A stretch of DNA of 12,559 bases from a virus, in IMG/VR virus record IMGVR_UViG_3300033145_000269, positions 1 through 12,559 of that record. The stretch is one strand, 5' to 3'. Both the position numbers and the translations under genes were made by a program. Below are positions 1 through 12,559 of the stretch, piece after piece. The notes below the pieces were generated by a model that was given only the letters and a program-made list of their open reading frames with translations, had not been told where the DNA came from and made no database searches. Each line of letters begins with the position of its first letter. Within the stretch, counting starts at the first letter, position 1.

Positions 1-114
1 AAGGTTAATTGCATGTTCTGGTGCATCTGACTTATTAGCACTCAATTTAAGCCTTAAAGCATCATTTGTTAATTTAGATATATTGATTGATTTAAGTTGA
101 GCATCTTTTAACTG
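1..114. repeat. Terminal direct repeat, left copy (identical to 12446..12559)
   Basis: Bases 1-114 (aaggttaattgcatg...gcatcttttaactg) recur base-for-base at 12446-12559. The repeat is bounded exactly by the window edges, as expected for overlapping contig ends of a circular or circularly permuted genome. Confidence 0.97.
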
Positions 115-150
115 ATCTGCATCAATAGTTATGCTAGTTGTTGTTTTCAT
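1..150 (-). CDS. N-terminal 50 codons of a wrap-around ORF (ribbon-helix-helix-like domain); continues at 12445 and ends at 12254
   Basis: The reverse complement of 150..1 reads ATG AAA ACA... = MKTTTSITIDADQLKDAQLKSINISKLTNDALRLKLSANKSDAPEHAINL, in frame with KCDVCKSEC... at 12445 downward. The strand-helix-helix pattern (SITID / ADQLKDAQLKS / ISKLTNDALRLKL) is typical of RHH (CopG/Arc-like) domains. Confidence 0.7.
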   Translation of the reverse strand, partial: MKTTTSITIDADQLKDAQLKSINISKLTNDALRLKLSANKSDAPEHAINL

Positions 151-171
151 ATATAATCATATATACTCTTA

Positions 172-179
172 TATATAAA
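172..179 (-). promoter_or_regulatory. TATA-like box (TTTATATA on - strand) for the leftward operon; putative leaderless transcript
   Basis: Plus-strand tatataaa at 172-179 is TTTATATA on the minus strand. Its centre lies about 26 nt upstream of the ATG at 150, and there is no GGAGG-like element in between. Confidence 0.45.
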
Positions 180-192
180 TATATAGGTTCTC

Positions 193-215
193 TAATACCT
201 ACATTTCCAGTGGAA
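193..215 (+). repeat. Copy A of a ~22-bp motif (taatacctacatttccagtggaa) containing the palindrome TTCCA-G-TGGAA
   Basis: The core cctacatttccagtggaa (198-215) matches cctgcatttctagtggaa (745-762) at 16/18 positions. It matches the reverse complement of 778-795 (cctatatttcaagtggaa) at 16/18. Confidence 0.8.
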
Positions 216-223
216 AACATATT

Positions 224-273
224 GAAAGAAAGAAAGAACCAAAGAAAGAAAGGGAGTGCATATATATATATGG
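224..273. repeat. Purine tract of (GAAA)n-like repeats followed by alternating (AT)n
   Basis: The sequence gaaagaaagaaagaaccaaagaaagaaagggag is followed by tgcatatatatatatgg. This is strand-asymmetric low complexity followed by an easily melted AT run. Confidence 0.8.
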
Positions 274-545
274 GGTGTTAGTAGTAGTTATCAATCTGTG
301 GCAAATCATACTCTACCAGTCCAATAATCAAATCACCTATACAGGCAAGTACCATCATATTATCTTGGCTATTAATATATCTGTAGATCAATTAGTATAT
401 AATAACTCATGACTATCCAAGCGAAGTAACATAGATATAAATACATCTTCTTTCTTATTTATATATCACCTCTTTTAGCAGGGTGGAGTGGATAACAGAA
501 ACTTCAGAAAACAGAAACTAAGCTCTATCTTGTTTTTTATGTACC

Positions 546-661
546 ATATATTGATAAGCTCGCTCATGCCATATCTTTATATAGATTGAAGTATTTAGAA
601 AGTTGCTCTTTCTATTCATTGGTTCTACATTAAGCTCGCTATCGCTCGCTTATCAATATAT
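546..661. repeat. Perfect 14-bp inverted repeat (atatattgataagc / gcttatcaatatat) flanking an ~88-bp spacer
   Basis: The arm at 546-559 is the exact reverse complement of 648-661. The spacer contains TTTATATA (576-583), and taagctcgct occurs twice (556-565 and 631-640). Confidence 0.85.
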
Positions 662-740
662 CTAAGGGTTTTTAGGTCCATACAGCTAGCCTTTTCATTA
701 GCCTCCCTTTCTTGATCTATTCCGACCAATTCCCCCCCTC

Positions 741-800
741 TTAACCTGCATTTCTAGTGGAAGTAGCAACCAAACCATTCCACTTGAAATATAGGTTAAT
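741..800. repeat. 60-bp imperfect palindrome formed by motif copies B (741-762, +) and C (778-800, -)
   Basis: The reverse complement of ttaacctgcatttctagtggaa is ttccactagaaatgcaggttaa, versus the observed right arm ttccacttgaaatataggttaa (19/22 identical). The spacer is the 15 nt gtagcaaccaaacca. Confidence 0.8.
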
Positions 801-977
801 TCACCCCTCCTTGGCCTCCCTGTATTGTTTGCTTCTTTAATGTGTGAGCGTAGCGAACTGTTAGTTATCCTCCTCACCGAATAACTGTATACTATGCTAA
901 CCTAAGTATACACTAGAAGTTAGCGAGAGTTATTGTCCCTTAGTAGTAGTGCTGTTGTTCTTCCCGCCACCGCTAAT

Positions 978-985
978 TTTATAAA
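978..985 (+). promoter_or_regulatory. TATA-like box (TTTATAAA) for the rightward packaging/structural operon
   Basis: The centre of the box is about 26 nt upstream of the ATG at 1007. The sequence in between (atataatattctaataatata) has no SD-like element. Confidence 0.4.
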
Positions 986-1006
986 ATATAATATTCTAAT
1001 AATATA

Positions 1007-1096
1007 ATGTCTTACGAAATACTATACCTTGATCTCTTAGCCACATTAGGAATACTCATAAAGCTATATCAACTAAAGAAAGAGGGAAAGCTATGA
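1007..1096 (+). CDS. Hypothetical 29-aa hydrophobic peptide (MSYEILYLDLLATLGILIKLYQLKKEGKL)
   Basis: The ATG sits at the predicted leaderless start. Its TGA stop overlaps the terminase ATG (ATGA at 1093-1096). The ORF is very short, so the call is weak. Confidence 0.3.
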   Translation: MSYEILYLDLLATLGILIKLYQLKKEGKL

Positions 1097-2430
1097 TCCT
1101 TAACCTAGATGACTGGCAAATAGAGGCTTTAGAGCACAAAGGCGACCTTTTACTCTGTACTGGTCGAAGAATCGGCAAAACATACATTATGGCAAAGAAA
1201 GCAGTTGATAGAATGAGATATAAGACAAATACTCAAATTGTTGTTGTTTCTCTTACCGCAGATCAAGCCGAACTAATAATAGAGTTCGCAAGAGAGATAA
1301 TCCAAGCAGAATGTCCCAGAGAAATCTCAAAGAAACATACAGATACTAATAAAACCAAAATAACATTTAAGAACAAATCTAAATTAATGGCTCGACCTGT
1401 TGGGAACACCGGAGATGCAGTACGAGGTTTCACAGGTGATGTTCTTATAGTAGATGAGGCCTCAAGAATGCCCCCTTTGATGTGGATGGCAGCTAAACCT
1501 ATTCTATTAATGACAGGTGGAGAGATATGGATGTGCTCAACTCCTGCGGGAAAAGAGGGCTATTTCTGGAAACAATATGATAAAGCATACAATAAGAAAG
1601 ATCCAGAGGCTAGATTTAAGGTTATTTATAAAACATCTGAAGATGTAGTGTATAATAGGCCTTTATCCTCTACTTGGACGGAATCACAGCGTGCAGGGGC
1701 AATAAGGAACTTAGAAGAGGAAAAGAAAGACATGTCAGAGCTAGAATACGGCCAGGAGTACTTAGGACTCTTTATGGAAGACTTAAAGAGGTTATTTGAT
1801 GAGAAATGGATAACAAACTGCGCAGTCCTGGAGAAAAGCCAATCTCAAGCCTCACAATTAGGTACCTACTTCATGGGTTGTGATATTGCGCGTCTTGGAA
1901 AGGATGCAGGAACTTTTGAGATATTTAAGAAAACAGAGAATTTAATATTACATTTAGATAACTTTGTCACAAGAAAGAAACTAACAACTGAAACTCATGA
2001 TAATATTATTAGGTTAAACAAACTTTGGAATTTTAAGAAGATTGGTATAGATGCCGGATCGGGGGCCTTAGGTGTTGGAGTCCTAGATTGGCTACTCCGA
2101 TCCGAAGTAAAGCGGAAAGTAATAGCCCTAAACAACCAACAAGTGGCCCTAGACCGTGAAGGAAAGAAGAAAAGAGCATTATTGAAAGAAGATGGTTATA
2201 TGTTGGTCCTAAGTCTTGGAGAAAGGGGAATACTCAAGCTTCTCAAATCAGACGACGTTATTAACTCTCTTAGATCAGTTCAATACGAAATAGTTAGAGA
2301 AAAGGGAGCACAAGCAAGGTTTAGAGTCTTCTCAAGCCCACATTCAGAGTCGCATATCATGGAGGGAGTATGGAGAGGGGTATATTTAGCAAATAGCAAA
2401 AATATAAATACCAACATTAGCTACTTTTAG
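1093..2430 (+). CDS. terL: Terminase large subunit (ATPase plus RNase H-like nuclease)
   Basis: Motifs present: Walker A CTGRRIGKT (aa 22-30), Walker B VLIVDEA (aa 117-123), coupling motif CSTP (aa 148-151) and LEYGQEYLGLF. The C-terminal nuclease acidic motifs are MGCDIARLGKD and IGIDAGSG. Length and N-terminal DWQ...GKT layout are typical of TerL. Confidence 0.9.
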   Translation: MILNLDDWQIEALEHKGDLLLCTGRRIGKTYIMAKKAVDRMRYKTNTQIVVVSLTADQAELIIEFAREIIQAECPREISKKHTDTNKTKITFKNKSKLMARPVGNTGDAVRGFTGDVLIVDEASRMPPLMWMAAKPILLMTGGEIWMCSTPAGKEGYFWKQYDKAYNKKDPEARFKVIYKTSEDVVYNRPLSSTWTESQRAGAIRNLEEEKKDMSELEYGQEYLGLFMEDLKRLFDEKWITNCAVLEKSQSQASQLGTYFMGCDIARLGKDAGTFEIFKKTENLILHLDNFVTRKKLTTETHDNIIRLNKLWNFKKIGIDAGSGALGVGVLDWLLRSEVKRKVIALNNQQVALDREGKKKRALLKEDGYMLVLSLGERGILKLLKSDDVINSLRSVQYEIVREKGAQARFRVFSSPHSESHIMEGVWRGVYLANSKNINTNISYF

Positions 2431-2432
2431 AT

Positions 2433-2573
2433 ATGGTAGTAGAACCCCTATTAGAATTAATAAAGAAACTGAAACTAAGATTTCCAAATAAATCAGACGA
2501 AGTTATCTTAGAATTAATAAAGATAAAGACACTTATGGATATAAGTGGTAAGCTTGGGATGTTGAAAAGATGA
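2433..2573 (+). CDS. Hypothetical 46-aa protein (not in ORF track)
   Basis: MVVEPLLELIKKLKLRFPNKSDEVILELIKIKTLMDISGKLGMLKR. It starts 3 nt after the terL stop, and its TGA overlaps the next ATG (ATGA at 2570-2573). It contains a 15-nt internal direct repeat, ttagaattaataaag, which encodes LELIK twice. Confidence 0.4.
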   Translation: MVVEPLLELIKKLKLRFPNKSDEVILELIKIKTLMDISGKLGMLKR

Positions 2574-2959
2574 CATGGACACTTTGCACCTCTGGCGCTG
2601 CAATAGATAAAGCAGGAACTCACGCTAATTCTACTATCATTGATTATGGTACTGCAGCATCTAAAGTTACCCTAGATAAGTGGTCTGATGAGTTTGAGGG
2701 GGCGATAGAATTACAATCTGGCAAAGCCTTTATTACAGATATAGGTAATGCACCTGGAGGAATAGCTAATGGTATATCAAACGTAGTATCTTCTTGGATA
2801 GCTATGCAGATTGCGAGTTATGATCCCACAGGTTATTCTTCAAGAGAGTTTAACTCCTTAATGAACTTCCACAACGATATAGTCCAGAAAGGAATAGCAG
2901 AATTAAAAAGATGGTCCTCAACAACGTTGAATAACCCATTTACAACAGGAAGCCCTTAA
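2570..2959 (+). CDS. Hypothetical protein, 129 aa (possible virion or connector component by position only)
   Basis: Long ORF in the operon frame chain, abutting the next gene (stop 2959, ATG 2960). No family recognised. Confidence 0.6.
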   Translation: MTWTLCTSGAAIDKAGTHANSTIIDYGTAASKVTLDKWSDEFEGAIELQSGKAFITDIGNAPGGIANGISNVVSSWIAMQIASYDPTGYSSREFNSLMNFHNDIVQKGIAELKRWSSTTLNNPFTTGSP

Positions 2960-3529
2960 ATGACATTACCACCCCAAGCATACACCTCTCAAGATGCGGC
3001 AGTTGCTAGTTATCCCGCTGCGGATTTAATAAATGGATTAAGTGATGTTATTTATAATTTGGTGAAAGTTCAGAACCCCGGATCATCAACTAATCTTAAA
3101 ATAGTCAGTTCAGATATGTCTGGTCAATTCGTAGCAGCCAATGGTTATAACTCTACAGCTAATGATGCTTTTGATTTAGGGCCTTTTCAAACTACAAGAA
3201 TAATAGATGGCTTTGTTTCTCTTTGGGGTCAACAGAATGGTACATCTGGAACTCCAACAATGACAGCTCAACTCTTTCATGTAGAATCAGATGGAACAAC
3301 AGAAACACAGCTAGGGGCTGATGGCTCTAGTGGTTCTACTACTTCAGATATAGCTTATAATATAACTTTCACAGTACCTAGAACTCAATTTAAAGTTGGA
3401 GAGTTCCTAAGAGTAAAGATTGATATGTCTGACGGAACTTTATATATTTCTATAGACCCAACAGAAATAAGCCCTGCATCAATAGCACATACAAGATTAA
3501 CCGTTCAATACGAGGTGGACTTAGTATAA
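2960..3529 (+). CDS. Hypothetical protein, 189 aa, Ser/Thr/Gly-rich and probably beta-rich (possible structural protein)
   Basis: ORF directly abuts its neighbours, and its stop overlaps the portal ATG (TAATG at 3527-3531). No family recognised. Confidence 0.6.
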   Translation: MTLPPQAYTSQDAAVASYPAADLINGLSDVIYNLVKVQNPGSSTNLKIVSSDMSGQFVAANGYNSTANDAFDLGPFQTTRIIDGFVSLWGQQNGTSGTPTMTAQLFHVESDGTTETQLGADGSSGSTTSDIAYNITFTVPRTQFKVGEFLRVKIDMSDGTLYISIDPTEISPASIAHTRLTVQYEVDLV

Positions 3530-4611
3530 TGGATCGTGATATGAGAAGTGCACAAGTCGGAACATCTACATCTACAGACTTTGAAGTGGATACAGCTAAC
3601 CAAGATGGCTTAACAGATCAGCCAGTAACAACCTTTGAGTATACAGACTTCCCACAATGGCAGAACTACTATGAAACTACTGCCGAAGCAAAAAAGCCTA
3701 TTCAGACTTATGCTACATGGGTTGTTGGCCAGGGTTATACAACTCAAACAGCAAAAGATGAAGCAACATTAAACAATATAAGGGGATGGGGTGAGGATGA
3801 TATAACTTCAATATTATGGAATATGCTTGTAGTTAAGAAGTTCAACGGAGACTCTTTTGCTAAGATTGTTAGAAACGATAAAGGTACTTTAATTAACATT
3901 CTTCCTCTAACTCCCTCAAGAATGAAAACAGATGTAAGGAGTAGCGGAACAATCAAACAATATAGGTATCTCTCTCCAGATCGTAATTCTGTAGAACAGA
4001 CATTCAAGCCAGAAGAAATATTCCATTTATGTAACGATCGTATTCTTGATAACGGAAAGGGAGACTCTGTTATAGAAACTCTTAAATGGTATATTGATGC
4101 TAAATGGGAAGCCATGAAAGACGTTCGTAGAGTATCACATAATTCTAGTATTAGAATCATATATGTCGACGAGGATAACATAGGTAAGATAACAGACTTA
4201 GAAACCAAATGGGCTAAAGGTATAGCTACAGGTAATGTTATGCTTATGCCTGGAAAGAAAGGAGTAGATTATGAGGTTGAAGATATAACCGTTCCTGCTC
4301 TTGATGCCTGGATGTTGTGGATAAAGTATTTAGAGAACTCTATATATAAGGCGGTAGGAGTACCTAAGACTCTTGCAGGTGACGCCGAGGGTATACCAGA
4401 GTCTGGTGGTAAGATGGTAGTATTCACACATCAACCAACATATATTAGAGAAGTTACAGTTCTTGAAAATGATTTCAAAAGACAGATAGGTATAGAGATT
4501 AAGTTTAATAGGCAAGAAGACTTATCTAATGATGTTCAAGAAACAGACTCAAAGAATACTAATCAAACACAGGCTACACAGCCAGGAGATACAAATGCGG
4601 GTACGGTTTAA
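3529..4611 (+). CDS. Portal protein (HK97-family-like, compact 360 aa)
   Basis: The central region FNGDSFAKIVRNDKGTLINILPLTPSRM...YRYLSP...EEIFHLCNDRILDNGKGDSVIETL follows the pattern I associate with Phage_portal (PF04860-type) proteins. The C-terminal tail is acidic and polar. The gene lies in the packaging module upstream of the head genes. Confidence 0.7.
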   Translation: MDRDMRSAQVGTSTSTDFEVDTANQDGLTDQPVTTFEYTDFPQWQNYYETTAEAKKPIQTYATWVVGQGYTTQTAKDEATLNNIRGWGEDDITSILWNMLVVKKFNGDSFAKIVRNDKGTLINILPLTPSRMKTDVRSSGTIKQYRYLSPDRNSVEQTFKPEEIFHLCNDRILDNGKGDSVIETLKWYIDAKWEAMKDVRRVSHNSSIRIIYVDEDNIGKITDLETKWAKGIATGNVMLMPGKKGVDYEVEDITVPALDAWMLWIKYLENSIYKAVGVPKTLAGDAEGIPESGGKMVVFTHQPTYIREVTVLENDFKRQIGIEIKFNRQEDLSNDVQETDSKNTNQTQATQPGDTNAGTV

Positions 4612-4626
4612 ATTAAACTTTAAGAT

Positions 4627-4809
4627 ATGGGGTTATACCATATACTTAACAATAAGAAAATGAAAAGATTAACATTAGGAGAAAGACTAGCAAAGGTTGA
4701 AGTTAGAATCAAATATGTAGAGAGAGGTATGTATGTTCTTATAGTATTACAATTAGGGGTTGATGCTATTCCTAAAGTCTTGCCTTATGTAATGGGGGTA
4801 TTGTTCTAA
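4627..4809 (+). CDS. Small protein with a C-terminal hydrophobic helix (60 aa, or 49 aa from the ATG at 4660)
   Basis: KRLTLGERLAKVEVRIKYVERG is followed by the hydrophobic MYVLIVLQLGVDAIPKVLPYVMGVLF. The stop overlaps the next ATG (TAATG at 4807-4811). Start choice is uncertain. Confidence 0.5.
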   Translation: MGLYHILNNKKMKRLTLGERLAKVEVRIKYVERGMYVLIVLQLGVDAIPKVLPYVMGVLF

Positions 4810-5804
4810 TGGTTATCCTAAATACTATAAAGAAGAAGAAAAAGAAAGAAGTAGAGCAAAGAGATAAAAGGAAAACTGTAGAGGGTGAAGTTACAACCAC
4901 CCCCGACTTCAAAGCTCCAGATGTTACAACAGTTCCAAAGAAGTTTAATATTAATGGTAAGCAAGTTACAGAAGAAGAATTCAAAGCAGCTCAATCAGAC
5001 TTTCAAGCTCAAAAAGGAGAGGCACAGATTATAGCCGCAGGTGGCGTGGGCCCACAAGAGAGGGAGGCTAAAGCAGAAGAATTAGCTAGGAAAGAGGAAG
5101 GTGCTCAAATATTACAAGAGGGGGGGTTTGATCCTTTAGCTCAAGCAGAGAGAACCCAGTTAGATATAGACCCTAAAACTGGACAAGGTATACCAGTTAT
5201 AGGTCCTGGTCAAGCTGCACTTCAAGGAGTTATAGGTGACTTTGTTAGAGGATCTATATTTGAGGGTGATGCTGCTAAGATGGAGCCTTTAATACAGGAC
5301 CCAGAAACTGCTAGAGAAGTTGCATTACAAGCTATTCAACAAGATGTTATAAATGAGGGTATCTCTGCAGGCGAGGCTTTCGGTGCTCTTGTTGAGAGTA
5401 TACCTCTTGTTGGTTCTTTAGCTAATAAGTATGCTCAAGGATTAATAGAAAATCCAAAAGGAAATATACAAACTATTACAACTCAAATAGCCTCTGAAAG
5501 AGAGAGGGCATCGGTATTAGCTGAAAAGATGCTAACAGGTAAGATGAACCCTATAACTGGTTTAGCGGAGATAGATAATATTGAGGAGAATATAGTAGGA
5601 TTAGAACAGAGAATAGTGGTTCTTGCTAATACTAGTGCCGCATTAAGAGCCGACGCTGATGCTATCAATTTAATAGAAGAACAAATACTAAGAGCTAAAG
5701 AGAGAGTTATAATCGCAAGAAATGCAGCAGCAGGAGGCTTTGCTGTTACCCCGTCAGATGCTAGCCTTGTTTTAGAATTGGAGAAAATAAATGAAAAATC
5801 TTAA
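4809..5804 (+). CDS. Charged, Ala/Glu/Gly-rich, predicted helical protein, 331 aa (scaffold-like or internal virion protein; function unknown)
   Basis: N-terminal lysine run (KKKKKKE), then long helical and coiled-coil-looking segments (EREAKAEELARKEEGAQ, ENIVGLEQRIVVLANTSAALRADADAINLIEEQILRAKERV). It lies between the portal and capsid genes. Confidence 0.6.
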   Translation: MVILNTIKKKKKKEVEQRDKRKTVEGEVTTTPDFKAPDVTTVPKKFNINGKQVTEEEFKAAQSDFQAQKGEAQIIAAGGVGPQEREAKAEELARKEEGAQILQEGGFDPLAQAERTQLDIDPKTGQGIPVIGPGQAALQGVIGDFVRGSIFEGDAAKMEPLIQDPETAREVALQAIQQDVINEGISAGEAFGALVESIPLVGSLANKYAQGLIENPKGNIQTITTQIASERERASVLAEKMLTGKMNPITGLAEIDNIEENIVGLEQRIVVLANTSAALRADADAINLIEEQILRAKERVIIARNAAAGGFAVTPSDASLVLELEKINEKS

Positions 5805-5887
5805 AGACCTTTATGTCTATGTATTCTGGCTATTTGTATTCTGGCCTGCTACGTTCTTCTTACATAGGTGAAAGGAGGTAAATTATA

Positions 5888-6175
5888 ATGGATGAAAAAC
5901 AAACAAAAAAGGAAACTGAACCGAAAGCTCCAGTTGCAAATACTGACAACGGGGATGAGCCCAAAGAGCTTACTGAGAGTCAGAAACTCAAAGCAGAGAA
6001 CGATAGAATGGAAAAGCTCTTAGTTGAACAGAAAGACTTTAGTGCTCAAGAGCAGTTAGCAGGTAGAGGTACAGCAGGTCAAGCACCAATTCCTAAAGCC
6101 CCAGAAACTGATGAGGAGTATGCCGAGCGTTTTCAAAAAGGCCAAGTTGATTTAATGAAGACAGATGATCAGTAA
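5888..6175 (+). CDS. Small acidic helical protein, 95 aa; candidate scaffolding protein
   Basis: Strong SD (aaaggaggtaaattataATG). The composition (ELTESQKLKAENDRMEKLLVEQKD) and position upstream of the capsid gene resemble phage scaffold proteins. The capsid protein has no N-terminal delta-like extension. Confidence 0.55.
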   Translation: MDEKQTKKETEPKAPVANTDNGDEPKELTESQKLKAENDRMEKLLVEQKDFSAQEQLAGRGTAGQAPIPKAPETDEEYAERFQKGQVDLMKTDDQ

Positions 6176-6344
6176 AGCAATTCTAAAAGAAGAAATTAAG
6201 AAGACTAAGGAAGCTATCAAGGCTATTGAAGCTATGTCTGTTAAATCTAATAAACAGAATCTACAGATACAAGAGGATTGTGGAGTCGGTTTACAGGTTA
6301 ACAGATTAGTTTTAGGTTATTTGGAAACCGAATTAAAGAAGTAA
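6165..6344 (+). CDS. Hypothetical 59-aa helical protein (not in ORF track)
   Basis: MISKAILKEEIKKTKEAIKAIEAMSVKSNKQNLQIQEDCGVGLQVNRLVLGYLETELKK. It overlaps the upstream gene by 11 nt, and its stop overlaps the next ATG (TAATG at 6342-6346). It fills a gap that would otherwise be non-coding. Confidence 0.5.
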   Translation: MISKAILKEEIKKTKEAIKAIEAMSVKSNKQNLQIQEDCGVGLQVNRLVLGYLETELKK

Positions 6345-6760
6345 TGACAGCTATATGGTTCATAACTAGAGGAATTAAAGACAGAGTGGATGCTCTAGTT
6401 AATGACTTACAAGCTCAAGTCTTCACCTTTAATGTAAAGAATAAGAAGACTAAGAAAGTAGAAACTCATTACGTTCAAGGTGCTTTAAGACCTGTTCAAT
6501 TGTGGGAGTATGTAGTTCCAGATGAGCACGTTCCGACTATGGTTAAAACCTTAGATTTGACAATAAATGGCTATCCAAAGTATAAAAAGTATTTAACGAT
6601 ACTTAGGAAGATGTTGAAATTAGATAAGATTAAAGAACCATCTAAAGATACGCCAAGAAGAATTTTAAGGAAAGATCACGTCGCTATGCATGTTATTGGA
6701 GTTAAGAAAGATGCTATCGGAACAACCTTAGACCCCAATATTGAGCACGAATTACTTTAG
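6344..6760 (+). CDS. Hypothetical basic protein, 138 aa
   Basis: ORF in the coupled chain. No family recognised. Confidence 0.6.
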   Translation: MTAIWFITRGIKDRVDALVNDLQAQVFTFNVKNKKTKKVETHYVQGALRPVQLWEYVVPDEHVPTMVKTLDLTINGYPKYKKYLTILRKMLKLDKIKEPSKDTPRRILRKDHVAMHVIGVKKDAIGTTLDPNIEHELL

Positions 6761-6787
6761 TTAATCGGTATACCGAATAACGAAAGA

Positions 6788-6795
6788 TTTATATA
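6788..6795 (+). promoter_or_regulatory. TATA-like box (TTTATATA) with a purine-rich upstream flank (cgaaaga), driving the decoration/capsid genes
   Basis: It lies in the 57-bp intergenic gap. The box centre is about 26 nt upstream of the ATG at 6818. The T-rich sequence in between has no SD. Confidence 0.5.
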
Positions 6796-6817
6796 TATTG
6801 TTTTTTATTATTTATTT

Positions 6818-7213
6818 ATGGCAAACGAAGCAACCCAAGTTGAGGGCCCATACGAGGCTCATGATTTTGAAGTAGTTGATGCAACAGCAGTTGAACAATA
6901 TACTTTAATGGGAATGTCAGATGCTCGTCACGCTTATGCTAGTTCTGGAGCTGATGACTTCGCAGGGATTGCAGCAACTGAAAAAACAGCTTCTAATGGT
7001 CAAACTCAATTAGGTCTATTTACCACAGGTACATTCCTTTTAACTGCCGCATCTGGTGCTGCAATAAGTGCAGGTGAATTGGTATCTCTATCTGGAGCTA
7101 ATTTCGTTAAAACAGCTACTGAAGCAGAAGTTGTAACTGGTCATGTTGTGGGTAAAGCCCTGGAAGATATAGCAGCAACAACCACAGGCGAAGTAAAGTT
7201 GGTGGTTAATTAA
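6818..7213 (+). CDS. Head decoration/cement-like protein (DUF2190-like), 131 aa
   Basis: FAGIAATEKTASNGQTQLGLFTTGTFLLTAASGAAISAGELVSLSG...VVGKALEDIAATTTGEVKLVV follows the two-lobed G..V...G.A...G..v.V pattern of DUF2190 proteins. Those proteins are commonly encoded immediately upstream of HK97-type capsid genes. The stop overlaps the capsid ATG. Confidence 0.55.
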   Translation: MANEATQVEGPYEAHDFEVVDATAVEQYTLMGMSDARHAYASSGADDFAGIAATEKTASNGQTQLGLFTTGTFLLTAASGAAISAGELVSLSGANFVKTATEAEVVTGHVVGKALEDIAATTTGEVKLVVN

Positions 7214-8070
7214 TGGCAGATAGACCAGGCCAAGCAGACGTAAGAGGAGAAAACATTTCTAAGGTCGTAACAGTATTAGCTCAAAAGAAATTCAGATTAA
7301 TGCCTTTACTTAAACAATTGACTTCTAGTGATATTACAGAAACTTATTACGAAGAGGATGCAACAATCCTAACAGCTGCAGGAACTAGAAACATTAAAGG
7401 TATTGGTAAATTCTCAGAGTTCCCTAGTGTAAACAGGTCTTGGGTTAAAACAAGTTCAGATCATCAAAAGTATGGTGCTGAAAGTTATATATCTATAGAA
7501 GACTTAAGACTAGGAGCTTTCAATATGCAAGCTAGAACAGTTGATGGTATAGCAGAGTCTATAACAAATGCAATAGACGAAGCAATCTACGCAGCTTTAA
7601 CAGCAGCTACAGGTACAAGTGGAGTAGTAGCAGCAGTGGCTACATGGGATAATGCAACAGCTTCAACCCAGAACCCAGTTAATGATATTCTTAGAGGAAT
7701 CCAAGCTATGGATGAGAACAACTACGATGCTTTAGAGAATGGTTTCCTATTGCTTAACCCTCATGACTATGCCTCCTTAATGCAGAACTCTAAGGTTATT
7801 AATAATCCATCATTTAAGACTGCTGATGTGGTAAGTAATGGGAGAGTAGGACAGATAGCAGGTCTTACAATAGTAAAGACTACAAGTGTTACAGATGCAG
7901 AAGCTATGATAATTATAGGTCAGAAGACAGCTCAATGGCAAAGTGCTATGGGCTTTGAGAGTGCTGTAACTGTTAAACCTGGTAAAGGTTCTATCTTTAC
8001 ATCCTGGCAAATGGGTCAAATACAAATCATACATAAAAAGGCTATCTATACGATAACGGGGACTGAATAA
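7213..8070 (+). CDS. Major capsid protein, HK97-fold, 285 aa
   Basis: KYGAESYISIEDLRLGAFNMQARTVDGIAESITNAIDEAIYAALT, then NGFLLLNPHDYASLMQ and GRVGQIAGLTIVKTTSV, match the conserved layout of HK97-family (PF05065-like) capsid proteins. The position after the scaffold and decoration genes also fits. Confidence 0.75.
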   Translation: MADRPGQADVRGENISKVVTVLAQKKFRLMPLLKQLTSSDITETYYEEDATILTAAGTRNIKGIGKFSEFPSVNRSWVKTSSDHQKYGAESYISIEDLRLGAFNMQARTVDGIAESITNAIDEAIYAALTAATGTSGVVAAVATWDNATASTQNPVNDILRGIQAMDENNYDALENGFLLLNPHDYASLMQNSKVINNPSFKTADVVSNGRVGQIAGLTIVKTTSVTDAEAMIIIGQKTAQWQSAMGFESAVTVKPGKGSIFTSWQMGQIQIIHKKAIYTITGTE

Positions 8071-8240
8071 TGGTAAACTATCAAGCTCAAGTTCTAAGAG
8101 GAGAGAAGTGGTTTCACTTAATGTCTGAAGAAGATATAGCTAAAGCAGGTGGAAGTATACCTGGAGATGTTAAAGTATATCTTGAATCTAAAGCTAAAGT
8201 AGTTGCAGAGAAAGAATCTAATTCTAAGAGGAAGAAATAA
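8070..8240 (+). CDS. Hypothetical 56-aa protein (not in ORF track)
   Basis: MVNYQAQVLRGEKWFHLMSEEDIAKAGGSIPGDVKVYLESKAKVVAEKESNSKRKK. There are TAATG stop/start overlaps at both ends (8068-8072 and 8238-8242). Confidence 0.5.
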   Translation: MVNYQAQVLRGEKWFHLMSEEDIAKAGGSIPGDVKVYLESKAKVVAEKESNSKRKK

Positions 8241-8398
8241 TGGTAGATTTAATTGGTGACAATTGCGAACCTAGTGATCTTGTTGTACCTGCAAAAGCTG
8301 TAGGTAAGGATCAGACAGGAGCAGTTATATTATCTGGTGCTAAGCTATGGGTTAATGTTGATGGTGCTGCAGGTTGGCAAGTTGTGACTTCTAGTTAA
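8240..8398 (+). CDS. Hypothetical 52-aa protein (not in ORF track)
   Basis: MVDLIGDNCEPSDLVVPAKAVGKDQTGAVILSGAKLWVNVDGAAGWQVVTSS. SD-like agaggaag lies upstream, and the start overlaps the preceding stop. Confidence 0.5.
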   Translation: MVDLIGDNCEPSDLVVPAKAVGKDQTGAVILSGAKLWVNVDGAAGWQVVTSS

Positions 8399-8407
8399 TT
8401 ATTTAAA
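8399..8407 (+). promoter_or_regulatory. A/T box (TTATTTAAA) upstream of the fibre gene
   Basis: The centre is about 26 nt upstream of the ATG at 8429. The intervening cttctttttctaatttattct lacks an SD. The match to TTTATATA is weaker than for the other three boxes. Confidence 0.35.
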
Positions 8408-8428
8408 CTTCTTTTTCTAATTTATTCT

Positions 8429-11038
8429 ATGGGTATTAATGATAGACTTATCAAAGCACGTACTGCAAAGAAACCAGACACTTCCGGCTTTCATAGACCA
8501 GAGGGTGCAGGTAACTTTGACAATATGGATGATATGAATATTGTTAATCAAGTTAATACACTCACTGGAAAAGTTGAACACATACCAACAGATAACAAAC
8601 ACATAGTAAACAAAGAATATGCTGATAGACATGACCCTTTCTGGAATGGATCGTTTAAAGAAACCTTTGATGCCTTAGTGACTTCTAATGGGACCATTGT
8701 AACTATGACTCTGACTAATGCAGATAGTGGTAACTTAACTATGCAGTTCTCAACTGGAGAGAGTACCCTATCTATGCCAGATACAATAGCTTTAACCGTT
8801 GGAAGTGATGCTAGCCCTCAAGCTAATTATATCTATATTCCTCTTAGTACAAAGGTCTTAACAAAGTCTACTTCTAACTGGCCCAATGAAGAACATATTA
8901 AGATAGGATATTTCTTAATCCAATCTGCCTCTGGTGTACAATCAGATGATGGATGTTATATCAATCAAAACTGGAACGATCATTTAGCAGGTACTAATGA
9001 TATGGGCCATGCTCAACATCTAGCAGAGGCTCTAAGACGTAGGAGTGCTAGGTATTTCTCTGGTATAGATGGGAATGGAACTGATAACTATTTAACTCCA
9101 ACAGCATCTAATGTAGAGTTTAAGTCTACGGCCGGAGTTGTATACCAACTGCACCAACATACTTTCCCTGCTGTTGATACAAGCACAAGTTCAGATGTTC
9201 ATGTTAAGAATTGGAATGGTGATTCTTTCCATCAGATAACAAATCTATTTGACATAGTGAATGATAGCACAGGTTCAGCTATATCTAATAACAAATATTT
9301 TAATTTAGTTTTCTGGGGTGTTGCTAACAAGACAGGTGAGCATGATATTATAATGGTGAACTTACCTAGTGGTTCTTATAATACTCAAGCAGGTGCAGAG
9401 TCTGACACTTCGGGCTTTGATGATTTCTCTATGCCAAGAGAATTTAATTTTGAAAGTTCTACTGGTTTCTTATTATCTCGTATGACAATACAAATGGGTA
9501 CAACATGGAGTGTGGCATCTTCTGTAGACCTTAGAGGACAGAGTCCAACTACAGCATCTGGGGGTGCATCTTCAGTAGCCACCGAGTTTCCAGATAATAC
9601 TTTCAGGATATTTGATGAGGCTGATCCAACTAAGGAGTTAGCTTTAAGTGTTGGTGGTATATCAGCGTCGACAACTAGAACTATAACTGTTCCAGATGAG
9701 AGTGGAACAATACCTTTAAAGACTGGTACTCCAATTAGTGGACAAATGGCTTCGTGGTCAAGTGAAACAACATTACAGCCAGAGGCTGAAATAACTTATG
9801 ATGGCTCTATTTTTCAAGTTGCTAATACTGCAGCAGCTGAAAGTGGGATGAGATTAAAATCTATATCTGGACAGCAAGCAGTTCTTTACTTAGATAATAC
9901 TACTGATATTTGGGCCATGTATGCGCCTGCCAGTTCTAATGATTTAAGATTTTGGAATGGTTCTGATCTGATGACTATAGACTCATCGGGAAATGTTGGA
10001 ATTGGGACGGCAAGCCCCAACACAGCTAAACTTCATGTAATAGGATCACCAACACAAATTAATTTTAATGATGCGGTAGATAAGGGTGGTTTCTTAGTTT
10101 CTTTAAATGATGACCAAGCTATAGTATCTGCAGGTGCATATTTTGATGGTGGTAATTGGAAAGCCACAGACACAACAGTTTCACAGATTGAAATGGTAGA
10201 TGGACAAATAAGATTCAGATATAAAACTGGACTTACTGCGGGGGACACTGTTAGTTGGTCTGATTCTATGAGAATTTTATCAGATGGTAAGGTTGGAATT
10301 GGAACTGTTAGCCCCTCTGCAAGATTTCATGTTAAATCTACTGGAGCAACATCACAGACATTCGGATTGTTTGAAGATAGTGCAGGAACAGATGCAGTTA
10401 AAATGTGGTCTGATGTAAACGGAGATAGTTTAATTAGTATCTACGACACAAGCGGGAATGAAGATGTTAGATTATATAGTGCAGGAAATTCTTGGTTTAG
10501 AGATACTAATCTTGGTTTGGGTACAACTGCTCCCGCTGAAAAATTAGAAATTGAGGGCGGTAACTTAAAGATGGAGAGTACCAACGACGGAAACAATGGA
10601 CTTATAAGATTTTATGATGCTAATGATGTAGAGAGCGGACAGGTTTATGCTAGTGCTAGTGATTTAAGATTGTTTAGTGCTAATGATATTATTATGACTG
10701 CTGATACTGTAGATGTAGTTGGGGCAATAGCTTCTGGGACCACAACAATAAGCGCAAGCTCTGATGCTGTAGACGTAACAGGAGTAAACACAATCTTTGT
10801 AAATACTGGATCGGGAGATGTGACTATAGGTGGTTTTACTGGTGGGATAGATGGTCAAGTAGTTCATATAATCAAAGCCCCAGACTCATCTAATAATATG
10901 ATCTTAGAATATAATGAGGCAGCAGGTACTGAAAAATTATTAAATCATGCACAAGTAGACTTAACATTTGATAAATTAGGTGGTGCTACTTATGTCTTCG
11001 GTGTTCAGTCCAAATGGTGGCAAGTAGACGGACCTTAG
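8429..11038 (+). CDS. Fibre/spike-like receptor-binding candidate, 869 aa
   Basis: It is the largest ORF and the last gene of the structural module. The C-terminal half carries three copies of the motif G-x-[VL]-G-[IL]-G-T-x-x-P-x-x-[KR]-[LF]-[HE]-[VI]: GNVGIGTASPNTAKLHV, GKVGIGTVSPSARFHV and NLGLGTTAPAEKLEI. I associate that motif with phage tail-fibre-domain proteins. Confidence 0.65.
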   Translation: MGINDRLIKARTAKKPDTSGFHRPEGAGNFDNMDDMNIVNQVNTLTGKVEHIPTDNKHIVNKEYADRHDPFWNGSFKETFDALVTSNGTIVTMTLTNADSGNLTMQFSTGESTLSMPDTIALTVGSDASPQANYIYIPLSTKVLTKSTSNWPNEEHIKIGYFLIQSASGVQSDDGCYINQNWNDHLAGTNDMGHAQHLAEALRRRSARYFSGIDGNGTDNYLTPTASNVEFKSTAGVVYQLHQHTFPAVDTSTSSDVHVKNWNGDSFHQITNLFDIVNDSTGSAISNNKYFNLVFWGVANKTGEHDIIMVNLPSGSYNTQAGAESDTSGFDDFSMPREFNFESSTGFLLSRMTIQMGTTWSVASSVDLRGQSPTTASGGASSVATEFPDNTFRIFDEADPTKELALSVGGISASTTRTITVPDESGTIPLKTGTPISGQMASWSSETTLQPEAEITYDGSIFQVANTAAAESGMRLKSISGQQAVLYLDNTTDIWAMYAPASSNDLRFWNGSDLMTIDSSGNVGIGTASPNTAKLHVIGSPTQINFNDAVDKGGFLVSLNDDQAIVSAGAYFDGGNWKATDTTVSQIEMVDGQIRFRYKTGLTAGDTVSWSDSMRILSDGKVGIGTVSPSARFHVKSTGATSQTFGLFEDSAGTDAVKMWSDVNGDSLISIYDTSGNEDVRLYSAGNSWFRDTNLGLGTTAPAEKLEIEGGNLKMESTNDGNNGLIRFYDANDVESGQVYASASDLRLFSANDIIMTADTVDVVGAIASGTTTISASSDAVDVTGVNTIFVNTGSGDVTIGGFTGGIDGQVVHIIKAPDSSNNMILEYNEAAGTEKLLNHAQVDLTFDKLGGATYVFGVQSKWWQVDGP

Positions 11039-11047
11039 TAATAATAT

Positions 11048-11063
11048 AAAAAAAAAGAAAAAA
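11048..11063 (-). terminator. Oligo-T tract (TTTTTTCTTTTTTTTT on - strand) downstream of the leftward operon
   Basis: The plus strand reads aaaaaaaaagaaaaaa, 24-39 nt beyond the stop of the 99-aa gene (11087). Oligo-T tracts act as intrinsic terminators in archaea. No convincing hairpin is present. Confidence 0.4.
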
Positions 11064-11086
11064 GGGCTTAGAATGGCTCTGTGAGC

Positions 11087-11386
11087 TTATTCTGCTAGTT
11101 CTACAGAGTATCTTGTAGCTAAACCTGTTCCAGTGCTAGTTACTTTAACAAACTTCATTTCTGGCTTAAGCTTCAACATCTTTTGAATTTCTTCAAGAAC
11201 TGTATTAGCTATTCTGAAATCGTTTGTACCAATAACAACAGCTTTATATGAGAAAGGCTTATCTTTCTTATCAATTCCCTCTCGATCTTCAACTGGTAAA
11301 CTCAAATCAAGCCTATCTAAATCTGTTACGTTAAGCGTTTTCTTAGGTTCGTAAGCTTCAGCTTCTTGTTTTAGTGTTTTTTGCAT
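11087..11386 (-). CDS. Hypothetical protein, 99 aa
   Basis: Strong SD (aaaggaggtaaagataataATG). It is the last gene of the leftward operon. No family recognised with confidence. Confidence 0.65.
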   Translation of the reverse strand: MQKTLKQEAEAYEPKKTLNVTDLDRLDLSLPVEDREGIDKKDKPFSYKAVVIGTNDFRIANTVLEEIQKMLKLKPEMKFVKVTSTGTGLATRYSVELAE

Positions 11387-11822
11387 TATTATCTTTACCT
11401 CCTTTTGGAATTATATTATGATCATTCACACTATGCTCGATGTGCGGATCTTTCTCCCTACATGTCTTACAATATATTTTAGCCTTATAGGCATCATAAT
11501 ATTGACCACAATTCCAACCTGCAGTTTTATCATCCCAACACAAAAGATTATGTATAAACTTACCACAACCCTTCGCACTATCTGTATTATCTGAACCCCT
11601 AAGGGTGTCAGAGGAGCAATCCTCTGACTTGTCATGTGCCTGTATACTAGGGTGACTATGATTTGATGGTTTGAATTCTTCACACAACCAATCTAAGAAT
11701 ATTTGACCTCTTTCCTGTACTTTTCTACCACTTATGTATATTGGATGAAATATCTCATAGTATCCACAGTTCGCACAAGATGGGTTGTCTGAACTCGTTG
11801 TATATCTTTCTATATTACTCAT
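11358..11822 (-). CDS. Cys/His-rich protein, 154 aa (zinc-binding; function unknown)
   Basis: CANCGYYEIFHP near the N-terminus, then CGKFIHNLLCWDDKTAGWNCG and CKTCREKDPHIEH. There are nine Cys including two CxxC pairs. SD ggggaggat lies upstream, and the start overlaps the upstream stop (ATGA). Confidence 0.7.
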   Translation of the reverse strand: MSNIERYTTSSDNPSCANCGYYEIFHPIYISGRKVQERGQIFLDWLCEEFKPSNHSHPSIQAHDKSEDCSSDTLRGSDNTDSAKGCGKFIHNLLCWDDKTAGWNCGQYYDAYKAKIYCKTCREKDPHIEHSVNDHNIIPKGGKDNNAKNTKTRS

Positions 11823-12025
11823 ATTAAATCCTCCCCTGCGAGTTTGTCAATTCTATTATGTATTGTAGCTATATCTTGGTAGAAATCACAATTATCTTCA
11901 ATTACAGGAATCCCCCTAAGTTCTTCTTTCAACTCTTTGATGAATTTCTTTACATGCCTTTTTCTAATAACATCTTCTTGAAGTTTTGTTTCTCCATACA
12001 TATCTATTTTATCGCTTAAACTCAT
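11819..12025 (-). CDS. Hypothetical helical protein, 68 aa
   Basis: ORF in the coupled chain, with ATGA overlaps at both ends. No family recognised. Confidence 0.6.
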   Translation of the reverse strand: MSLSDKIDMYGETKLQEDVIRKRHVKKFIKELKEELRGIPVIEDNCDFYQDIATIHNRIDKLAGEDLI

Positions 12026-12132
12026 TCTAATTCTCCAATCTTATTTATTAATCTAAGCATTACTCTTTCAAAATGGCCTGTTAGTATCTTTATCTGTTCA
12101 TTCATATATGTTTCGTATTCTCCTCTAGTCAT
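12022..12132 (-). CDS. Hypothetical 36-aa protein (not in ORF track)
   Basis: MTRGEYETYMNEQIKILTGHFERVMLRLINKIGELE. ATGA overlaps occur at both ends (12129-12132 and 12022-12025), with SD-like ggagag upstream. Confidence 0.4.
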   Translation of the reverse strand: MTRGEYETYMNEQIKILTGHFERVMLRLINKIGELE

Positions 12133-12257
12133 ATTCTCTCCATGACATTTCTAGTCTTACCACATTTATGACAATAAGCAACTTTGGGGTTTCTAAATCT
12201 AAGTGAGAAAACCCATAAATCCTCCTTATGTCCACATTTTAATTTATAGAGACTCAT
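12129..12257 (-). CDS. 42-aa zinc-ribbon-like protein (not in ORF track)
   Basis: MSLYKLKCGHKEDLWVFSLRFRNPKVAYCHKCGKTRNVMERI carries C-x-H and C-x2-C pairs 18 residues apart. Its ATG overlaps the upstream stop (ATGA at 12254-12257), with SD-like tggag upstream. Confidence 0.5.
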   Translation of the reverse strand: MSLYKLKCGHKEDLWVFSLRFRNPKVAYCHKCGKTRNVMERI

Positions 12258-12559
12258 TCTCGAACTCCATTGAAGCTAGGTATTCTGATGTGCTCGTGTA
12301 GGCCTTGTGATCCTTTACTATCTCTGATCTCGTCATGAGGGTGCATATTCATATTACATATCTCTTGACATTTCTCACAATAGAATTTGTCTAGTTCTTT
12401 ACACATATAGCCAAATTCGCACTCAGACTTACACACATCGCATTTAAGGTTAATTGCATGTTCTGGTGCATCTGACTTATTAGCACTCAATTTAAGCCTT
12501 AAAGCATCATTTGTTAATTTAGATATATTGATTGATTTAAGTTGAGCATCTTTTAACTG
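12254..12559 (-). CDS. C-terminal part of the RHH plus B-box-like zinc-finger protein (113 aa once the genome is circularised; start is the ATG at 150)
   Basis: The frame is open from 12559 down to the TGA at 12254-12256. The segment 12446-12559 duplicates 1-114. The C-terminal half reads CDVCKSECEFGYMCKELDKFYCEKCQEICNMNMHPH. The track's start at 12490 is a TTG, not an ATG. Confidence 0.7.
   Translation of the reverse strand, partial: QLKDAQLKSINISKLTNDALRLKLSANKSDAPEHAINLKCDVCKSECEFGYMCKELDKFYCEKCQEICNMNMHPHDEIRDSKGSQGLHEHIRIPSFNGVRE
12446..12559. repeat. Terminal direct repeat, right copy (identical to 1..114)
   Basis: Exact 114/114 identity with the window start. Confidence 0.97.

Follow-up and report, generated by a model that had tools for sequence, protein, structure and literature searches.

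We analysed a 12,559-nucleotide stretch of viral DNA (IMG/VR record IMGVR_UViG_3300033145_000269, positions 1 to 12,559; hereafter the window) and the gene-free region at positions 151-1006 that separates its two divergent operons (the hub). The hub is probably a replication origin dependent on the Orc1/Cdc6 initiator of the host, combined with the divergent promoter region of a minimal tailed archaeal virus. Judged from its sequence, a motif present three times in the hub is an archaeal origin recognition box (ORB) and a predicted Orc1/Cdc6 site. Because ORBs are found in the hub and no replication gene is recognisable, the virus probably borrows the origin machinery of its host. An initial annotation, made from the DNA letters, had proposed that the hub is an origin, a packaging site or a regulatory centre, and had expected host-recognised origin elements in it; this expectation gains support from the triple repeat, which matches the archaeal ORB, is found beside cellular orc1/cdc6 genes and is concentrated in the hubs of related viruses. 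No open reading frame (ORF) of at least 60 amino acids (aa) is present in 151-1006, as the annotation had stated, and the longest one measures 59 aa (698-877, minus strand, GTG start). Genes are densely packed elsewhere once ORFs of 46-59 aa are counted, leaving 151-1006 as the only large gap. Within the reach of searches against Pfam, PHROGs, NCBIfam and PDB sequences, the absence of a replication protein, assumed in the annotation, is borne out too: no polymerase, primase, helicase, Rep, HUH or Orc1/Cdc6 protein was recognised among the ORFs of the virus.

The triple motif has the 19-nt consensus ACCTNNATTTCNAGTGGAA and occurs at 197-215 and 744-762 on the plus strand and at 778-796 on the minus strand. 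Its repetition, already noticed in the annotation, is real and far above chance: the 13-nt core ATTTCNAGTGGAA is present in three copies versus 0.09 expected, and none of 200 shuffled sequences reached three. ORB A (ACCTACATTTCCAGTGGAA, 197-215, plus strand, core ATTTCCAGTGGAA) starts 17 nt beyond the leftward TATA box. ORB B (ACCTGCATTTCTAGTGGAA, 744-762, plus strand) is made of an ACCTGC flank (744-749) and the core ATTTCTAGTGGAA (750-762), and stands head-to-head with ORB C (ACCTATATTTCAAGTGGAA, 778-796, minus strand, core ATTTCAAGTGGAA), with 15 nt between the two cores. ORB C is also inverted relative to ORB A, 562 nt away, and these two boxes face inward with their ACCT flanks outward. 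In Pyrococcus furiosus, Cdc6/Orc1 binds an ORB1 oligonucleotide, AAAACCCCCCAGAGTTTCATTTCCACTGGAACC, with an invariant core consisting of TTCC and GAA (PMC1904270). ORB1 contains TCATTTCCACTGGAA, its core compared with the viral boxes is ATTTCCACTGGAA, and the bound ORB1 and ORB2 oligonucleotides contain ...CCCCC(C)AGAGTTTCATTTCCACTGGA(A/G)... (PMC1904270). The invariant TTCC...GAA of bound ORBs and mini-ORBs is present in all three viral cores, and the hub carries several boxes including at least one inward-facing inverted pair. A C-string, CCCCCCC (732-738), accompanies copy B only, 11 nt before the core versus 8 nt in P. furiosus ORB1; ORB B and the C-string (732-762) form a predicted full-length ORB with a layout like that of P. 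furiosus ORB1.

Cellular genomes, one per prokaryotic species, were scanned with the pattern ACCTNCRTTTCCANTGGAA and at least 120 loci matched (loci are designated below by L numbers). Among the matches listed, 36 of 120 carried an archaeal label, including Woesearchaeota, Pacearchaeota, Nanoarchaeota, Thermoplasmata, Methanomassiliicoccales, Poseidoniales, Thermococcus, Bathyarchaeia and others. Archaea are far above their share of the scanned database in these listed matches, a share which we take to be a few percent, and the bacterial matches are within the chance range for a pattern of ~33 bits. The same extended element as in the hub is found next to cellular orc1/cdc6 genes: such a gene directly adjoins the box in eight loci among the matches listed (L029, L063 and L131 from Woesearchaeota, L118 from Methanomassiliicoccales, L120 from Nanoarchaeota, L065 from Thermoplasmata, L025 from a bacterial bin, and L024), and an MCM gene adjoins it in one (L102). 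In L063, L131, L120 and L065, two boxes 110-660 bp apart face inward with the ACCT flank outward beside the initiator gene, and ORB A and ORB C of the window have this same polarity. The locus from the bacterial bin (L025, Lachnospiraceae) encodes at 1229-2764 a full Orc1/Cdc6, scoring 628 bits against the Orc1 profile, and has three ORB cores around this gene; the locus is almost certainly an archaeal origin region that was binned wrongly. A 13-kb Pacearchaeota contig (L066, JAAOYK010000018.1) has an ORB pair closely resembling that of the viral relative L008, with features at 439-458 and 1093-1191, and also carries the operator-like palindrome ATATTCGTTACACCGAATAA. No protein similarity between this contig and the window was found; it may hint at Pacearchaeota hosts or at another mobile element.

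Cellular oriC1-type origins, where Orc1/Cdc6 binds ORB and mini-ORB repeats (Pyrococcus, Sulfolobus, Methanothermobacter, and the Woesearchaeota L063/L131, Nanoarchaeota L120 and Thermoplasmata L065 loci), have in common with the hub the dyad core ATTTCCAnTGGAA preceded by an ACCTNC 5' flank, a candidate C-string in a single copy of the box, the presence of several copies including an inward-facing inverted pair across several hundred bp, and placement in the one large intergenic region of the genome. The virus differs from them in having no orc1/cdc6 in the replicon, inter-box DNA barely AT-richer than the genome, two boxes arranged as a tight head-to-head pair, and a replicon of 12.4 kb. The hub lacks one defining feature of this class, the adjacent cognate initiator gene, and is therefore not classed here as a standard replicator-initiator unit. 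A captured host origin was considered and rejected; the hub matches cellular loci at the ORB alone.

About 90 related loci were gathered via the terminase. Wherever the flanking sequence was long enough, the terminase operon is preceded by ~470-1,020 bp of ORF-poor DNA, but the greater part of the hub could not be aligned among these loci. Searches by blastn with a word size of 7 found islands only: the TATA box plus ORB A (165-218) shared with L001, ORB A shared with L188 and L007, the purine tract (227-269) shared with L152, and two boxes in 846-914. The alignment proposed in the initial annotation thus recovered small conserved blocks, the ORB among them, in a hub that is hypervariable overall and in which most of the other repeats it had listed are not conserved. 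A weight matrix built from the viral boxes gave an ORB density of 0.54 hits/kb over the 1.3 kb preceding the terminase gene, versus 0.012/kb elsewhere in the loci, an enrichment that amounts to ~46-fold in the equivalent hub (about 50 relatives). At least one ORB was present in 17 of 49 hubs, the terminase-proximal ones at about -115 to -460 and the distal ones at about -670 to -1010, near the opposite promoter, and arrays reached seven boxes in L305 and six to seven in L289. Since they occur on either strand, as single copies and in differing pair arrangements among relatives, the ORBs are read as protein-binding DNA sites and not as RNA structure. The viral box variants CCAGTGG, CCTATGG, CCCATGG and CCTGTGG are all seen in cellular ORBs. 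Runs of C or G were found in the hubs of 28 of 52 relatives (3 expected), and (TA)n is also enriched there.

Relatives without canonical ORBs carry short inverted repeats with loops of 7-9 G or C, such as TTGCGGATTTTGGGGGGGAAAATCCGCAA (L004 1229-1340, L005 7503-7530, L003 2632-2655). Another box, ACCTTAGTGCACA, is present in L005 and L011, and a related 9-mer, ACCTAAGTG, is common to eight hubs. The G/C-loop repeats and the ACCTTAGTGCACA/ACCTAAGTG boxes may be alternative initiator sites for other hosts.

When a viral collection was scanned with the extended box, 105 stretches matched, corresponding to 104 loci (L212-L315). This virus family accounts for 22 of them, in which the box mostly precedes the terminase gene by 115-760 nt; an Orc1/Cdc6 gene is absent from all 104 ORB-bearing loci. 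The remaining 82 contigs fall outside this terminase/capsid family; other archaeal viruses or mobile elements may commonly carry host-type ORBs.

The hub also carries the signals of a divergent promoter region. The outward-facing TATA-like boxes reported in the initial annotation are exact and agree fully with the archaeal consensus. The leftward one (TTTATATA, 172-179, minus strand) is centred 25.5 nt upstream of the ATG at 150 of a gene encoding a 113-aa ribbon-helix-helix (RHH) zinc-finger protein, and the rightward one (TTTATAAA, 978-985, plus strand) is centred 25.5 nt upstream of the ATG at 1007 of a 29-aa ORF that overlaps the large terminase gene where the latter begins, at 1093. A third box, belonging to the cement/capsid operon (6788-6795, plus strand), is centred 26.5 nt before the ATG at 6818. 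All three have the arrangement of leaderless archaeal TATA promoters (TTTAWAWA ~26 nt upstream of the start codon) and are predicted to be such promoters.

A different element, the 20-bp palindrome TTATTCGGTATACCGAATAA, is present in the hubs of relatives. The window hub has a degenerate copy at 863-886 that retains the complete right half, CACCGAATAACT (875-886), but only AGTTAT (863-868) of the left arm. A near-perfect copy, TTAATCGGTATACCGAATAA, is located at 6761-6780 on the plus strand, immediately upstream of the capsid-operon TATA box, and pairs made of one hub copy and one cement/capsid promoter copy were found in L005 (1982-2001, 7567-7586), L007 (2470-2489, 8688-8707) and L008 (5279-5298, 11336-11355). 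Because a full copy sits at the cement/capsid promoter, the palindrome appears to be a transcription operator, distinct from the ORB and probably serving the late genes. It was dropped as an origin or packaging (pac) element, given its second copy at the capsid promoter in the window, L005, L007 and L008. With the palindrome read as an operator, the hub would also be a regulatory centre, and this proposal of the initial annotation is sustained by two predicted leaderless TATA promoters and a conserved operator half-site.

If the hub is an origin, host Orc1/Cdc6 would bind ORB A, ORB B and ORB C and would load host MCM on nearby easily melted DNA, for example (AT)7, the segment 358-477 or the AT-rich DNA of the promoters. 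From there, replication of the circle by the host replisome would proceed bidirectionally and in the same direction as transcription of the two operons, which diverge from the hub and converge at 11,038-11,087, a region that would be the replication terminus. As ORB A is just upstream of the leftward promoter, initiator binding at this box may couple early transcription to replication.

Several observations weigh against an origin. The AT fraction between the inverted ORBs is 0.66 versus 0.63 genome-wide, whereas it is 0.70-0.80 versus 0.54-0.64 in the cellular origins examined; with so little AT enrichment between the boxes, no clear unwinding element stands out, and the least stable DNA of the hub consists of the two promoters and 358-477. 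The replicator-initiator pairing of cellular origins is not found, as the virus has no cognate orc1/cdc6 gene beside the ORBs. The cumulative GC/AT skew suggested as a check in the initial annotation proved uninformative: it turns at 1073/980 and 11085/11073, and although these extremes agree with an origin in the hub, they coincide exactly with the switches in gene orientation, so that the skew is confounded and was rejected as independent evidence. The canonical ORB is absent from about two thirds of the relatives, including the closest (L005/L132). ORB-like sequences also occur away from origins: an isolated mini-ORB in Pyrococcus is left unbound in vivo (PMC1904270), and in the Pacearchaeota contig L066 the ORB pair is inside a 263-aa ORF with a low-complexity linker. 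Finally, the small viral proteins could include a novel initiator or adaptor.

The weak unwinding element would also suit a role in which host Orc1/Cdc6 binds the ORBs to repress or activate the divergent promoters, or is titrated by them to the detriment of host replication, and does not initiate viral replication. In both the window and L001, ORB A stands immediately upstream of the leftward TATA box, several relatives have distal ORBs close to the opposite end of the hub, and Orc1/Cdc6 homologues are lysis-lysogeny regulators in SNJ2 and have been proposed as such for MSTV1 (PMC11375127). We nevertheless consider this role unlikely, as clusters of up to seven boxes (L305, L289) look more like an origin than like an operator, the genome offers no other candidate origin and no recognisable replication gene, and the operator role at two promoters is already filled by a different conserved palindrome.

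A packaging function would be compatible with an origin. The hub, or its terminase-proximal part, would then be a pac or cos site, with CACCGAATAACT, TATGCTAACCTWAGT and the AGCGAGAGT/GCGAGC repeats as terminase recognition elements. The hub immediately precedes the terminase operon, searches of the virus proteins against Pfam and PHROGs recognised no small subunit of the terminase, and several conserved boxes are left without an explanation. These are TATACTATGCTAACCTAAGTATACA, within 886-930 on the plus strand and matched in L188, L141 and L149, TATGCTAACCTWAGT at 890-906, and AGCGAGAGT at 922-930 on the plus strand, matched in L001, L003, L007 and L163; repeats of the AGCGAGAGT/GCGAGC type recur in the hubs of relatives. 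The presence of the palindrome at the capsid promoter points instead to transcription control, and the contig ends are arbitrary assembly breakpoints. Packaging at the hub is therefore doubtful in our view.

It is also conceivable, but quite improbable, that the boxes are bound by a protein of the virus itself, the RHH-zinc-finger protein or another small zinc-finger protein, and resemble ORBs by convergence or mimicry. The first gene next to the hub does encode an RHH DNA-binding domain, and several further small zinc-finger proteins are encoded. However, cellular orc1/cdc6 genes are accompanied by this very 19-nt extended box, ACCT flank included, and the viral variants all have cellular counterparts, as described above. 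Among the relatives scored, a homologue of the RHH-zinc-finger protein is absent from six of seven ORB-bearing viruses, and ORBs are absent from three of the four relatives that have the homologue. As ORB presence does not track this gene, the RHH-zinc-finger protein was rejected as the ORB binder and the idea of a viral binder is weakened.

Least probable of all is that small peptides or a non-coding RNA are encoded in the hub: two TATA-like boxes inside it (458-465 and 576-583) precede GTG- and TTG-start ORFs at about leaderless distance and the folding z-scores of 690-975 are -2.1 (plus strand) and -2.6 (minus strand), but the main hairpin is the ORB B/C inverted pair, which is arranged differently in relatives, and none of the hub ORFs is preserved across the more than 80 relatives compared. 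This conservation analysis covered 34 stop-to-stop ORFs by tblastn (all E >0.02), and hidden small genes were rejected as an account of the hub, an explanation that the initial annotation had kept in view. The box at 458-465 (TTTATATA, plus strand) has its centre 26.5 nt from the start of a 33-aa GTG-start ORF (488-589), and the box at 576-583 is followed by a 20-aa TTG-start ORF (603-665). Both ORFs are hydrophobic, start about 24-26 nt from the TATA-like centres and are not conserved in relatives; boxes and ORFs could reflect chance, small peptides or promoters of non-coding RNAs. A structured RNA was rejected: folding of 690-975 is only mildly more stable than that of shuffled sequences, owing to the ORB B/C pair, and the window has no Rfam match at E <=1. 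In 10 relatives nothing reached the Rfam gathering score, and ARAGORN called no tRNA in any of these sequences. An iteron/Rep or rolling-circle origin has no counterpart in the gene content either, no Rep, HUH, primase or helicase domain being found in any ORF.

The other hub repeats listed in the initial annotation are all present, with coordinates at most one base off. A (GAAA)7 purine tract (224-252) is followed by (AT)7 (259-272), an easily melted run where unwinding might take place. On the plus strand, GAWAACAGAAACT is repeated in tandem at 491-503 and 507-519. A perfect 14-bp inverted repeat is located at 546-559/648-661, enclosing three copies of GCTCGCT (558-564, 634-640, 644-650), which are grouped with the GCGAGC-type repeats above. 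The element TTAGTAGTAGT occurs at 278-288 and 940-950, one base away from the positions first given, CT-rich direct repeats occur at 695-714 and 808-827, and the short nested inverted repeats of 863-930 are real but weak. The shorter two-copy repeats are each, taken singly, compatible with chance. The least stable 120-nt stretch away from the promoters is 358-477 (AT 0.76, z 3.1), a candidate unwinding element. No conservation in relatives was found for the (GAAA)n tract, the tandem AACAGAAAC repeats, the 14-bp inverted repeat or TTAGTAGTAGT, and hub DNA showed no similarity to deposited phages.

The window begins and ends with an identical 114-bp direct overlap (1-114 and 12446-12559), and the genome is therefore a complete 12,445-bp circle or a circularly permuted linear molecule. 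The plus-strand module (1007-11038) comprises the 29-aa ORF and genes for the large terminase, portal, cement protein, HK97-type capsid and tail-fibre protein, together with close-set small ORFs. The minus-strand module runs from 11087 through the contig junction to 150 and encodes small, mostly zinc-finger, proteins; its hub-adjoining gene spans the junction (150 back to 12254), and the 113-aa product has a CcdA-like RHH N-terminus followed by zinc fingers. The two modules converge at 11038-11087. Matches to Pfam Terminase_6N, Phage_portal, Phage_capsid_4 and Phage_cement_2 and to tail-fibre PHROGs place the virus among the tailed viruses (Caudoviricetes).

More than 880 terminase homologues were found at E <=1e-20 on contigs up to about 11-12.7 kb, indicating a large, uncultured family of very small tailed viruses. 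The closest relative (L005/L132) has a terminase 70% identical to that of the window. No close cultured or deposited relative was present in the deposited phage/virus collection searched; the top terminase match there was Halogranum tailed virus 1 (26% identity over 76% of the protein), likewise an archaeal tailed virus with a homologous large terminase but with a genome of 144 kb. An Izemoplasmatales bin label is probably a binning artefact, and the similarity of the ORBs points only loosely to hosts among DPANN, Thermoplasmatota or Euryarchaeota. In L009 (8254-8901; same contig as L133, terminase 52% identical), a tyrosine integrase gene adjoins the hub, and some members of the family are therefore probably temperate; an ORB-like box, ATTTCCCATGGAAAGGGGGG, lies just past this integrase gene. 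In L002 (3740-3795), a tRNA-like 3' half, GGGGGTTCAAGTCCCCTCGCCGGGA, is found upstream of the terminase operon and may be an attachment-site remnant; neither ARAGORN nor Rfam detected a full tRNA.

Other archaeal viruses are tied into the Orc1/Cdc6 system through the protein. Orc1/Cdc6 is encoded by MSTV1 of Methanobrevibacter smithii, by the pleolipovirus SNJ2, where it acts as a lysis-lysogeny regulator, and by the haloarchaeal tailed virus DHTV-4, whereas the virus described here has the DNA boxes alone and would have to use the protein of its host. Verdandiviruses of Asgard archaea are reported to be small tailed viruses without recognisable replication or transcription proteins and are predicted to be fully host-reliant (bioRxiv 10.1101/2021.07.29.453957). 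They resemble the present virus in these respects; their genomes are described as reaching 20 kb, and the passages searched mention no cis-acting origin element. In the AGV1 preprint, ORBs were sought in the virus and none was found. No description of ORB arrays on a tailed virus lacking Orc1 was found in the literature searched, the coverage of which was incomplete.

In bacteria, plasmid and phage origins with DnaA boxes present host initiator sites on the replicon, as does Epstein-Barr virus oriP in eukaryotes for host ORC/MCM. The logic would be the same here, a mobile replicon using the helicase loader and replisome of the host. Such replicons, however, normally also need a protein of their own (Rep, EBNA1), and none is recognisable in the virus.

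Extended to a whole large and globally distributed family of ~11-13 kb tailed archaeal viruses without replication genes, the proposal is more tentative and in our estimation falls slightly short of an even chance: many members would use one to seven host-type ORBs, fired by host Orc1/Cdc6 and MCM, as an extra chromosomal origin. Box variants would track the specificity of the host initiator and thereby be a determinant of host range, and the virus and the host chromosome would compete for the initiator. As to the copying of small archaeal viruses without replication genes, papers on them state a reliance on the host (bioRxiv 10.1101/2021.07.29.453957), and the hub offers a concrete cis element, putative host-type ORBs on a virus without an initiator. 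The promoter and operator signals predicted here are moreover defined for a very abundant, undescribed virus family. If true, the host-dependent origin would be the archaeal counterpart of DnaA-box replicons and Epstein-Barr virus oriP. It would also provide a compact origin module for vectors in archaea lacking genetic tools and, through the comparison of viral ORBs with host origins, a sequence handle for predicting the hosts of uncultured archaeal viruses.

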